Positions 22,202 to 25,792 of a stretch of 33,993 nucleotides of DNA are shown here, piece after piece. The stretch covers positions 1 to 33,993 of the forward strand of contig CAWJBB010000064.1 of assembly GCA_963840855.1 (NCBI GenBank), read 5' to 3'. The first letter of the stretch is position 1, and each line of letters opens with the position of its first letter. The stretch is from an uncultured delta proteobacterium (lineage in GTDB: Bacteria; Desulfobacterota; Binatia; UBA9968). Below the pieces are notes generated by a model. It did not search any database, had not been told where the DNA came from, and saw only the letters and a program-made list of their open reading frames with translations. The translations under genes and the position numbers were made by a program.

Positions 22202-25200
22202 CTACTTACCGTGGCAGCGCTTGTACTTTTTGCCGCTGCCGCAGGGGCAGGGATCGTTGCGGCCGATCTTTTCACCTTCGCGTTTTACAGGCGTGGCGCG
22301 GCCGGCATCTAGATTTTCACCGCCGTGACTGAGAACCATTCTTTGCGGGCGGGTTTGCCGTACTTCTAGTTCCTGAGCGGCGCTCTCGCGCGCGATTTCT
22401 ACCGTGAAGAGCTTTTGCACGACGTCTTCCTGGATGCGGTGGGCCATTTCCTCAAACATGTCAAAGCCCTCTTTTTGGTATTCCTGGAGAGGGTTTTTCT
22501 GCCCATATCCGCGCAGGCCGATGCCCTCCTTCAGATGGTCCATATTGAGTAGATGGTCCTTCCAGAGGCCGTCGATGGTTTGGAGCATGATGATCTTTTC
22601 CAGCTGGCGGAGCATCGGCGCTGTAAAACGTTTCTCTTTGTCTTCGTAAGCCTGGTTGATTCTTTCCATCGCCAGTTCCGTCAGAGCATCCAGCTTTAAC
22701 CCCTCCGCCGCTTCGGGTAATGGATCGAAACGTAAATTGAACTGGTGCAACAATCCTTCGCGCAGCCCGTTCCAATCCCAGTCCGAAGCGTGGTCGTCCG
22801 CTTCAGCGTAACGCGACACGACTTCGGTGGCGAGGCCTGCGGCCATGTCCAACACCTCCGCCTTCAGCGTCTCACCCTTGAGCACTTCGCGCCTTTGATT
22901 GTAAATGACCTCCCGCTGCTTATTGAGCACATCATCGTACTCCAGCAGGTGTTTGCGGATATCGAAGTTATGCGCCTCGACCTTCTTCTGGGCGTTTTCT
23001 ATGGCCCGCGTCACTAAGCCGTGCTCGATGGGTTCTCCTTCTTCCATGCCCAACCGGCCCATGATCCCCTGAATCCGGTCGGCGCCGAAAATGCGCATCA
23101 GGTCATCTTCTAAGGACAGATAAAATCGCGATGAGCCAGGATCGCCTTGGCGTCCCGCCCGGCCGCGCAACTGGTTATCGATGCGCCGGCTCTCGTGGCG
23201 TTCCGTGCCGAGAATATGCAAACCGCCCGCGGCGATCACCCGGTCATGTTCCGCGGCACAAACCTCGTTGTAGCGCGCTAGAATCTCGTGGAAACGGTGG
23301 CGGTACTCATCCGGCGCCTTTTCCAACTGCTCCCGGATTTCTTCCACGACGCGTAGATACTCTTGCCGTTTGGTTTCGTAGGTTAGCTGCGCTTCCTGCA
23401 CCGCCGCTTCATAGGGCTCGCGGACTTCATCGCAGCGCAGTTCGGCTTCTTCGAATGCGCGGTGAACGGTCTCATATTCCCGCGCCAACGGCGCATGTTC
23501 TCCTTCGGCGAACTGCTCCAAAGTCCTTTCAAACTCCAGATCGATCAAGCGCTGCTCGTAATTGCGCCGCTGGTCGTCGAGGGCTTCGACCAAGTCCTGG
23601 CGCTCGCCATTTTTCTTCTGCCAACGGTCAATCAACTCACCGAACTTTTGGCGCGCATCCTCGAAGTCATCGTCCTCATCGCCGCCGTTCGATTCCAACA
23701 GCGCTCCTTCGAACTCTTCCTTTGCTCTAAGATATCCACTGGGAATCTGCTGCATGCCGTGCAACGCTTCGATCAGTTCGGTGGACGAAAGGTCTTCGTA
23801 ACGTTGCCGCGCCTCACGGAATGGCGAAACGCCGCGAATCTCTTTCTGGAGTTCCGTGGAGCGCTTGAGGGCGTCGCTGCGCTGCTGCTGATAGACCTCG
23901 CCCTCCGTCAGATAGCGCTTTTCCGCCTTCTGGATATCTTCCTCGTATTTTTCGCGCAATTCCCGGAGCGCGTCTTCGTAGCGCGCCGCGCCTTGCGCGG
24001 GCAATTTGGTCGCCCGGCTGATCCACTCATTCTCCATGTCCGAGCGGGCCAAAAATTCAGGGTTCCCGCCCAAAAGGATATCTGTTCCCCGGCCCGCCAT
24101 GTTGGTGGCGATGGTTACAGCGCCGAAACGTCCCGCCTGCGCGATGATCGATGCCTCGGCCTCATGGTTGACGGCGTTGAGAACGTTGTGTTTGATCCCT
24201 TTCTTCTTGAGCAAGCGCGAGAGCTTCTCCGATTTCGCCACCGACGTGGTGCCCACCAGGATCGGCTGGCCCTTCGTATTGCGCTCCTCTATCTCGTTCA
24301 CCACCGCGTCGAATTTTTCCCGCTCCGTGCGATAGACCACATCAGCGTTATCCACACGAATCATATCGCGATGGGTCGGCACCACGACGACGTCGAGCTT
24401 GTAAATTTTCTTGAACTCCGGAGCCTCGGTGTCCGCCGTGCCGGTCATGCCGCCGAGCTTTTTGTACATCCGAAAATAATTCTGGATCGTGATCGTCGCC
24501 AGCGTCTGGTTTTCTTCGCGGATGCGCACGCGCTCCTTGGCCTCCACCGCCTGGTGCAGGCCATCGGACCAGCGCCTTCCCGGCATCAAGCGCCCGGTAA
24601 ATTCATCGACGATGAGCACTTCACCTTCCTTGATGACGTAGTCGACGTCGCGTTTAAAGATAGCGTGGGCCTTGAGAGCCTGCTGCACATGGTGCAATGT
24701 GTCGATCTGCCGCGGATCGTAGAGGTTGTGCACGCCGAGCAACCGTTCCACCTTCGCGACGCCCGTTTCCGTCAGGGTTACCGCGCGGCTCTTTTCATCA
24801 ACGGTGTAATCACCCTGTTTCTCGATGGCGGCACGGTCTTCCTGGTTGGGATCGCCCTGGATCACCGCTCCGCGCTGCAATTTCGGGATAATGCGGTCGA
24901 TGTTGTAATATTTGTCCGTGGATTCCTCCGCCGGTCCGGAGATGATCAGCGGCGTTCTCGCTTCGTCGATCAGAATATTGTCTACCTCGTCCACGACGGC
25001 AAAATTAAGCTCCCGCTGGACGTAATCCTCGATGGAGAACTTCATGTTGTCGCGCAGGTAGTCGAACCCGAACTCGTTATTGGTGCCGTAAGTAATATCG
25101 GCGCGGTAGGCCTCTTGCCGCGATATCGGACGTAGATTGAGATAGCGGTAATCCTTTGTGATATAAGTGGGGTCGAAAAGATAGCTCACGTCGTGCACGA

Positions 25201-25792
25201 TGGAGGCCACCGACACTCCCAATTTGTGATATATCGGCCCCATCCACTGCACGTCGCGCCGGGCGAGATAATCGTTGACGGTAATCAAATGGACACCACG
25301 CCCGGTGAGGGTGTTGAGATATAACGGCAAGGTCGCTACTAGCGTCTTACCTTCCCCCGTGCGCATCTCGGCGATGGTGCCGCCGTGTAGGACAGCCCCG
25401 CCGATCAGCTGCACGTCGAAATGGCGCAACCCAATGGTGCGGCGCGACGCTTCGCGCACCGCCGCAAACGCTTCCGGCAACAGTTCGTCCAAAACATCCG
25501 CTTCAGCCTGACGCAGCTGCTTGTCCAACTCCGCCACACGCTCTTGGTGCTCCTCACGCTGCTCCGCCTCCAACGATTCGAACCCCGCCTCGGCCTCCCC
25601 AAGCTCCTTACGCACCGCGGCAGTGGACTCCTGAAGTCGGTTCTTGAACTGCTCGGTCTTGGCCCTGAGCTCGTCATCCGTGAGCTTTTGATATTCCGGT
25701 TCGAGCGCATTGACCAGCTCCACCAAAGGACGAAGCCGTTTAATTTCGCGCTCGTTCTTGGTCCCGACGACTTTCTTTATCCAGCTCAACAT
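22202..25792 (-). CDS. secA: Preprotein translocase ATPase SecA (enlarged, 1196 aa)
   Basis: [83 protein letters not shown]-terminal [19 protein letters not shown]; GAGGAG RBS. Confidence 0.98.

Follow-up and report, generated by a model that had tools for sequence, protein, structure and literature searches.

A predicted helical stalk-and-head expansion in the VAR region of the housekeeping SecA of Candidatus Binatia

SecA is the essential and much-studied motor of bacterial protein export, and the variable (VAR) subdomain of its second nucleotide-binding domain (NBD2) is among the few known variable regulatory elements of this protein. In Escherichia coli, VAR is reportedly dispensable but tunes the ATPase activity and the release of ADP. 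Here we describe the secA gene of a 33,993-nt contig (CAWJBB010000064.1 of assembly GCA_963840855.1; hereafter the window, that is, the whole stretch of DNA analyzed) from an uncultured deltaproteobacterium assigned to Binatia, the product of which appears to carry a large helical arm at the tip of VAR. Inserts confined to one lineage are known in other SecAs. They comprise an insert of 50 amino acids (aa) in Thermotogales and Aquificales and, in Thermales, one of 76 aa at the NBD2 periphery (Khadka et al. 2019, PMC7023208). The Thermales insert is, like the arm described here, lineage specific, exposed at the surface, and located in the NBD2 of a housekeeping SecA (PMC7023208). It is nevertheless three times shorter than the Binatia arm: the distance between the LGG and GTERHE motifs that bracket VAR is about 77 aa in the Thermus protein (PDB 2ipc). 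Profile A3 matches 2ipc through the flanks only (profile positions 1–32 and 273–302), which gives no sign that the inserted parts are homologous.

In E. coli SecA (2fsf), the LGG-to-GTERHE distance is 39 aa, in keeping with the figure of about 40 aa given in an earlier note on this DNA, which was made from the sequence alone; it is 285 aa in the window SecA. The site is the same (E. coli residues 531–535) and both flanking VAR helices are conserved, whereas the stalk and the head predicted for the window SecA are without counterpart in solved SecAs. A comparison with PDB sequences and profiles revealed nothing at this site beyond a short VAR in any solved SecA. The long-form SecAs of NF009536 (PRK12901, 1118 profile positions) are likewise far longer than the norm of 800–900 aa. 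Because window aa 364–575 align to profile positions 489–700, the extra length of this family lies upstream of the NBD2 motif GTDI and not in VAR. In the literature searched, which included few subscription journals and no supplements, neither a large helical VAR insertion nor a Binatia SecA is described, and the accessible parts of PMC3101351 and PMC7503281 contain nothing on VAR. Lineage-specific SecA inserts being already known, the novelty here is a SecA with a predicted stalk-and-head expansion of VAR, marking a large part of Candidatus Binatia.

The secA open reading frame (ORF) spans positions 22202..25792 of the reverse strand and encodes 1196 aa followed by a stop codon; unless otherwise stated, all features below lie on this strand, with coordinates given in the window. 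All five SecA Pfam domains were found in its product: PF07517 (SecA_DEAD, NBD1; E = 1.2e-122), with the sequences MRTGEGKT (Walker A, GEGKT) and VDEVDN (DEVD) present in the translation; PF01043 (SecA_PP_bind, the preprotein cross-linking domain or PPXD; E = 1.1e-43); PF21090 (P-loop_SecA, NBD2; E = 5.3e-89), matched in two pieces with the insert between them; PF07516 (SecA_SW, helical scaffold and wing; E = 1.7e-74); and PF02810 (E = 8.2e-10), corresponding to the C-terminal SEC-C zinc-binding motif (aa 1178–1196, 22205..22261). The motor motifs and the zinc-binding tail are intact, as the earlier note had read them. The protein scores above the cut-offs of two NCBIfam equivalog models, NF009538 (1209.9 bits, cut-off 814) and TIGR00963 (1089.5 bits, cut-off 800). 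It falls below the curated cut-offs of the four SecA2 models TIGR03714, TIGR04221, NF012136, and TIGR04397, and below that of the long-form model NF009536 (969 bits, cut-off 1493). Its three other Pfam matches, DEAD, DUF6374, and Helicase_C, are weak and below cut-off, and none is an intein or Hint family. As a single PF07517 match was obtained in the genome (7.1 Mb in 93 contigs, 94% complete, 8% contaminated), this protein is its sole SecA at that level of completeness. We regard it as the housekeeping SecA of a bacterium of Candidatus Binatia type.

The earlier note had placed 273 residues between two NBD2 motifs, and this count is exact: they are aa 581–853 (23234..24052), between a 12-residue motif at aa 569–580 and a 14-residue motif starting at aa 854. 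The reported richness in E, R, Q, A, and L and poverty in proline are equally borne out (E 18.3%, R 11.4%, A 9.5%, L 9.2%, Q 7.0%, and six prolines, 2.2%). When the window SecA is aligned with that of E. coli, aa 599 falls opposite residue 531 and aa 847 opposite residue 535, leaving about 244 extra residues. SecA was also extracted from 20 further genomes of the class. Among the 21 sequences, the LGG-to-GTERHE distance is 46–50 aa in the short sister SecAs and 282–338 aa in the insert-bearing ones. The short sisters harbor NPEFLARAELG, a short loop, and DxxWxxxLxKYRxQCxxEREEVLxAGGLHI, an ordinary two-helix VAR hairpin. A two-helix subdomain of VAR type is also present in the window SecA between GTDIxLGG and GGLxIxGTERHE, with its loop expanded. 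Aligned with the short sisters and with the E. coli and Mycobacterium tuberculosis SecAs, it retains both VAR helices. Helix 1 (aa 578–593, 24014..24061), recognized from the AlphaFold2 (AF2) model and the alignment, is common to the short-VAR sisters, and helix 2 (aa 827–854, 23231..23314) is common to short-VAR and solved SecAs, profile A3 matching residues 548–589 of the M. tuberculosis protein (1nkt) at this helix. Since the outer residues of the 273-aa stretch are ordinary VAR helices also found in the short sisters, the net addition amounts to about 240 residues, roughly aa 588–828, in the loop at the VAR tip of NBD2. The earlier proposal of an insertion of some 270 aa in the VAR region therefore stands as to its reality, helical nature, and location, but not as to its size.

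Searched alone, as the earlier note had suggested, the insert matches 493 database proteins at E ≤ 1e-3. The best 120 of these are all SecAs or SecA fragments, 64–100% identical over the insert and about 1195–1200 aa long when complete; the named records among these 120 are metagenome-assembled genomes (MAGs) of Candidatus Binatia or Deltaproteobacteria. In a representative library, the insert gave 72 matches, of which five were inspected: four are SecAs or fragments of SecA, and the fifth is a 2194-aa repeat protein (P0154). The similarity of the latter was judged compositional, and it was rejected as a relative. No previously described domain was recognized by Pfam, NCBIfam, PDB sequence, fold, or literature searches. 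The best Pfam match of the insert alone is a GMIP-like FCH domain at 17 bits (cut-off 27), its best match among PDB sequences (E = 0.9) is not meaningful, and no NCBIfam match and no usable ESM Atlas match were obtained.

Coverage of the junctions, another check that had been proposed, was examined in public sequencing runs, and contigs from independent runs bridge both of them. A 915-nt contig from run X8 spans positions 23171–24085, and two contigs from run X2 bridge positions 23234 and 24052 separately. Contigs from an RNA library (X15) cover parts of the insert (23211–23840), although DNA carry-over is possible, and bins at 23920–24021 lack cover in run X1, which proves nothing. The one item in favor of a mis-assembly, an intein, or another mobile insertion is an X2 contig joining 23211 to 24076 and omitting 864 bases. 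This joint is nonetheless a single contig whose shorter side is 31 letters long with 90% likeness; the depth jumps in its bins, the flanking motifs are common to many organisms, and it is most simply the short SecA of another organism. Moreover, relatives from 11 families carry the insert in frame and in colinear position, its GC content resembles that of the remainder of secA, and no Hint or intein Pfam family was matched at E ≤ 0.1 in the whole protein or at E ≤ 10 in the insert alone, in agreement with the absence of intein signatures noted earlier. In our view, the 493 matches, the family-wide profile matches, and the junction-bridging contigs refute the artifact, to which we attach a negligible probability.

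An AF2 model of aa 569–867, built from a 29-row alignment, has a mean predicted local distance difference test (pLDDT) of 85.2 and a predicted template-modeling score (pTM) of 0.64. It contains eight helices (aa 578–593, 605–654, 659–678, 685–700, 708–726, 731–761, 767–825, and 827–854): the two VAR helices at the base, a pair of stalk helices (50 and 59 residues), and four helices forming a distal bundle. We read the arm as an antiparallel two-helix stalk (aa 605–654 and 767–825) bearing a four-helix head (aa 659–761). The outgoing stalk helix (aa 605–654, 23831..23980), with pLDDT values mostly above 90, pairs with the returning helix (aa 767–825, 23318..23494), in which the motifs PYE..A...YE.KR...VREQLEKAP are conserved in the alignment. 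From helix length at 1.5 Å per residue, the stalk would be about 75–85 Å long. The head (23510..23818) comprises helices 659–678, 685–700, 708–726, and 731–761 and is the least conserved part.

The structure comparison (VIA search) is consistent with this reading, as model residues 38–253 pair as two long antiparallel helices (110 aligned residues, root-mean-square deviation [rmsd] 2.8), residues 63–222 match short helical hairpins (51 residues, rmsd 1.3), and residues 84–192 match four-helix bundles. The latter matches, to alpha-catenin VH1 (Z = 9.7) and to p130Cas, FAT, talin, and vinculin (Z = 8–9.3), have rmsd values of 3.1–5.6 over 100–119 residues with 4–15% identity, and Z scores below about 13 are generic for helical models. 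A Foldseek search against the PDB returned no match at E ≤ 0.001, the best being an SMC coiled coil (E = 0.11, TM-score about 0.2). The predicted fold of the arm therefore matches no known fold above the level of a generic helical bundle. The earlier note had imagined a long antiparallel coiled-coil arm with an acidic stretch as its central turn. An antiparallel two-helix stalk is indeed predicted, but with a four-helix head on top rather than as one hairpin. The acidic 11-residue stretch (aa 702–712, 23657..23689) does not form the turn of the arm: according to the sequence and to the secondary structure assigned to the model by DSSP, its start fills the loop that joins the second and third head helices, and its remainder opens helix 3 (708–726). 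Heptad-like patterns are weakly seen, with a/d scores of 0.35–0.70 in the stalk helices; this score is crude and without shuffle control, and a proline or glycine occurs every 20–35 residues. A weak internal similarity was also observed between aa 611–630, at the start of the outgoing stalk helix, and aa 789–808, in the middle of the returning one. Its score of 46 is marginal compared with the shuffle control (30 ± 4.4, maximum 42), and it could reflect an old duplication or convergent packing.

Across the 401 genomes sampled in the class, a split P-loop_SecA match characterizes 11 of the 20 families (f1, f112, f113, f114, f3, f4, f5, f117, f118, f121, and f123) and an unsplit one the nine others (f2, f8, f115, f6, f116, f7, f119, f120, and f122). 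The LGG-to-GTERHE distance is 282–338 aa in the 11 split families, as well as in one genome of another class (G036), and 46–50 aa in the nine unsplit ones. Profile A2, which covers VAR and the insert, matches 213 of the 235 genomes of the 11 families (210 of 232 without the unpublished genomes G728, G738, and G570), 205 of them at E ≤ 3e-76; the eight weaker matches look like fragmented genes. Family by family, these counts equal the numbers of genomes with any SecA P-loop match. In the nine short families, A2 matches only at 1e-11 to 1e-16, through the flanks. Among the sampled genomes of the 11 families in which a SecA was found, none has the short form alone. In two of these families, additional copies were observed. 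Next to its insert-bearing SecA, one f1 genome (G411) has a 968-aa frame with a short, unsplit SecA P-loop match, and in one f112 genome (G744) each of two contigs bears a copy with the insert; these extra copies could be paralogues, strain mixtures, or contamination.

Mapping VAR length on a SecA phylogeny had also been proposed. In an unrooted maximum-likelihood tree of the SecA core (21 rows, VAR and insert columns removed), the 12 insert-bearing rows form one side of a single branch (Shimodaira–Hasegawa-like approximate likelihood ratio test [SH-aLRT] 100; one change). The simplest reading of these sequences is a single gain of the insert, in a common ancestor of roughly half of the class's families. 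In a sample of the phylum, six of 401 genomes match the insert, and one of these, G036, lies outside the class. Although G036 is placed in another class, its sole SecA nests in the insert-bearing clade (SH-aLRT 93), for which transfer, mis-binning, or classification are possible explanations. A scan of named genomes, which is a convenience sample rather than a census and covers only SecAs with the GTDILLGGN motif, comprised at least 74 loci. At the VAR site, 69 non-Binatia SecAs have 40–114 aa and five Binatia-type SecAs, a minimum for insert-bearing records, have 287–336 aa. In other phyla (L076–L150), we observed smaller, unrelated expansions of the same loop, for example Ala/Gly/Ser-rich stretches, the longest of 114 aa, in Acidobacteriota-type MAGs and a Gly/Pro/Ala-rich loop of 111 aa in a Myxococcales MAG. 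The VAR loop thus appears, from these comparisons, to be a general insertion hot spot.

In 12 diverse insert-bearing sequences, identity to the window SecA is about 0.6 at the base of the arm (aa 580–619 and 820–859) and 0.25–0.40 in the middle of the insert. The frequency of the most common residue follows the predicted architecture, being 0.78 and 0.64 in the VAR helices, 0.57–0.58 in the stalk helices, and 0.38–0.44 in the head helices. Insertions and deletions among relatives occur after aa 599, 657, 676, 697–702, 726–733, and 761–764, all of which are predicted loops or helix ends. The net charge of the inserted part is between −10 and −23 in all 29 sequences examined. We estimated nonsynonymous to synonymous substitution ratios (dN/dS, Nei–Gojobori) from 82 non-independent pairs of 28 sequences with a core dS of 0.05–1.2. 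The median is 0.105 for the core, 0.173 for aa 620–780, and 0.089 for the insert base, and the insert is, judging from these ratios, evolving under purifying selection.

We hold it somewhat probable, on the strength of the model, that a folded, all-helical, strongly acidic domain of about 240 aa has taken the place of the VAR-tip loop and serves as an accessory regulatory or docking arm on VAR. The two VAR helices would be prolonged into an antiparallel stalk, running out along aa 605–654 and back along aa 767–825, and the small four-helix bundle of aa 659–761 would cap it. This rigid arm would project from the motor into the cytosol and would connect VAR with a lineage-specific contact, be it a different protein, a second SecA, or another region of the same SecA. 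What favors such a coupling, in our view, is that the two VAR helices persist and are simply extended. Stalks that couple partner binding to ATPase control exist in the ClpB/Hsp104 middle domain and in dynein. In these proteins as in the predicted arm, an antiparallel helical stalk grows out of a nucleotide-binding domain and bears a small domain at its far end. The analogy is one of design: there is no sequence match or significant fold match, and SecA belongs to the helicase-like motors of superfamily 2, not to the AAA+ rings. By this analogy, binding of a lineage-specific partner, a second protomer, or the extra N-terminal hairpin of NBD1 to the head or the stalk might gate ADP release through the VAR base, a specific regulatory scheme that we regard as unlikely; if true, it would represent a mode of SecA control or targeting in Binatia not seen in model bacteria. 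Several observations weigh against an accessory arm. The head, which would be its natural docking tip, is the least conserved part (0.38–0.44 versus 0.57–0.78 for the stalk and the base), which makes a universally conserved partner less likely. Any folded insert of an essential protein would in any case be under purifying selection, which is therefore no proof of a specific role. The full-length AF2 model is mediocre (41-row alignment, pLDDT 69.2, pTM 0.43). Finally, split or partial P-loop matches occur in a few genomes of "short" families, for example G478, G494, G785, and G727; the A2 match of G494 is at flank level only (3.0e-11), and the three others are not among the A2 matches.

The main rival is that the domain is a structural passenger, a helical module lodged in the permissive VAR-tip loop, devoid of specific activity, and kept only since an essential protein would suffer if it were lost or misfolded. 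That the same loop is a hot spot of length change (40–114 aa in the 69 non-Binatia named records listed, often of low complexity), that the head is poorly conserved, that E. coli can reportedly do without VAR, and that the same lineage has other helical inserts at the N-terminus and in PPXD all speak for a passenger. Yet no sampled genome of the 11 families in which a SecA was found has the short form alone, length, acidic charge, and helix boundaries are conserved, dN/dS is 0.17 even in the most variable part, and AF2 predicts the fold with confidence, so that we consider a mere passenger a serious but rather unlikely explanation. Long helical stalks often pair, and the stalks of two SecA protomers could do so to stabilize a lineage-specific dimer. 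For the 76-aa NBD2 insert of Thermales, it has been suggested that it may aid dimer formation (Khadka et al. 2019, PMC7023208). A net charge of −10 to −23 would disfavor self-association without counter-charges, and a two-copy complex prediction of the arm (A3) scored 0.00, which is evidence neither way; an oligomerization arm seems to us quite improbable. Slightly more doubtful still is a built-in chaperone, a substrate-holding arm, or a ribosome tether, as the earlier note had envisaged. An acidic arm could bind the basic N-regions of signal peptides, and SecB was not found in the genome under study. SecB was, however, not found either in five of five insert-bearing and five of five insert-less genomes of the class; with no contrast between the two groups, a link with the loss or replacement of SecB is not indicated, and we dropped it. 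As for tethering, rRNA is anionic too and a strongly acidic arm would be a poor mimic of the SecA–ribosome contact as described in the literature.

At the VAR tip, a predicted stalk-and-head of about 240 aa was fixed long ago in a large, uncultured lineage abundant in soil, which shows that the motor tolerates, and perhaps uses, a large NBD2 appendage. Should the arm bind a partner or change nucleotide exchange, it would add a new layer to Sec regulation; if it is a passenger, it would reveal a very permissive insertion site, useful for SecA engineering. On either reading, the arm provides a clean molecular marker by which about half of the families can be told apart within the class.

The same SecA carries two smaller insertions. 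Motif spacing and the full-length model indicate a second, lineage-specific helical insertion near the N-terminus, in NBD1, at about aa 55–98 (25499..25630). The spacing from G..N.R to PEAFA is 88–95 aa, versus 46 aa in relatives without it, corresponding to about 42–49 extra aa, and the model has helices at aa 39–69 and 76–119 in this region, with pLDDT values of 74–91. This insertion is present in families f1, f117, f118, f3, f123, and f121, and also, judging from a colinear match, in f4. It is absent from f112, f113, f44, and f5 and, because it is likewise absent from all measurable short-VAR SecAs, it occurs only within the clade with the VAR arm, where its distribution is patchy. In the PPXD region, about 18 extra aa are found at aa ~306–327 (a 21-residue stretch, 24812–24877). 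The corresponding IISGP-to-DYxxDE spacing is 37–40 aa in f1, f112, f113, f117, f118, f3, and f121 and 22 aa in f114, f123, f4, f44, and several short SecAs.

The neighbors of secA are ordinary: a nucleotide-sugar dehydrogenase-like ORF, followed by glutamate-racemase-like and radical-SAM-like ORFs, all named from their translations. Antisense to secA, two frames are open on the forward strand, 23462–25135 (557 aa) and 23131–23730 (199 aa). Their translations are rich in Arg, Ala, and Leu, and we treated both as non-genes, shadows typical of GC-rich coding DNA.

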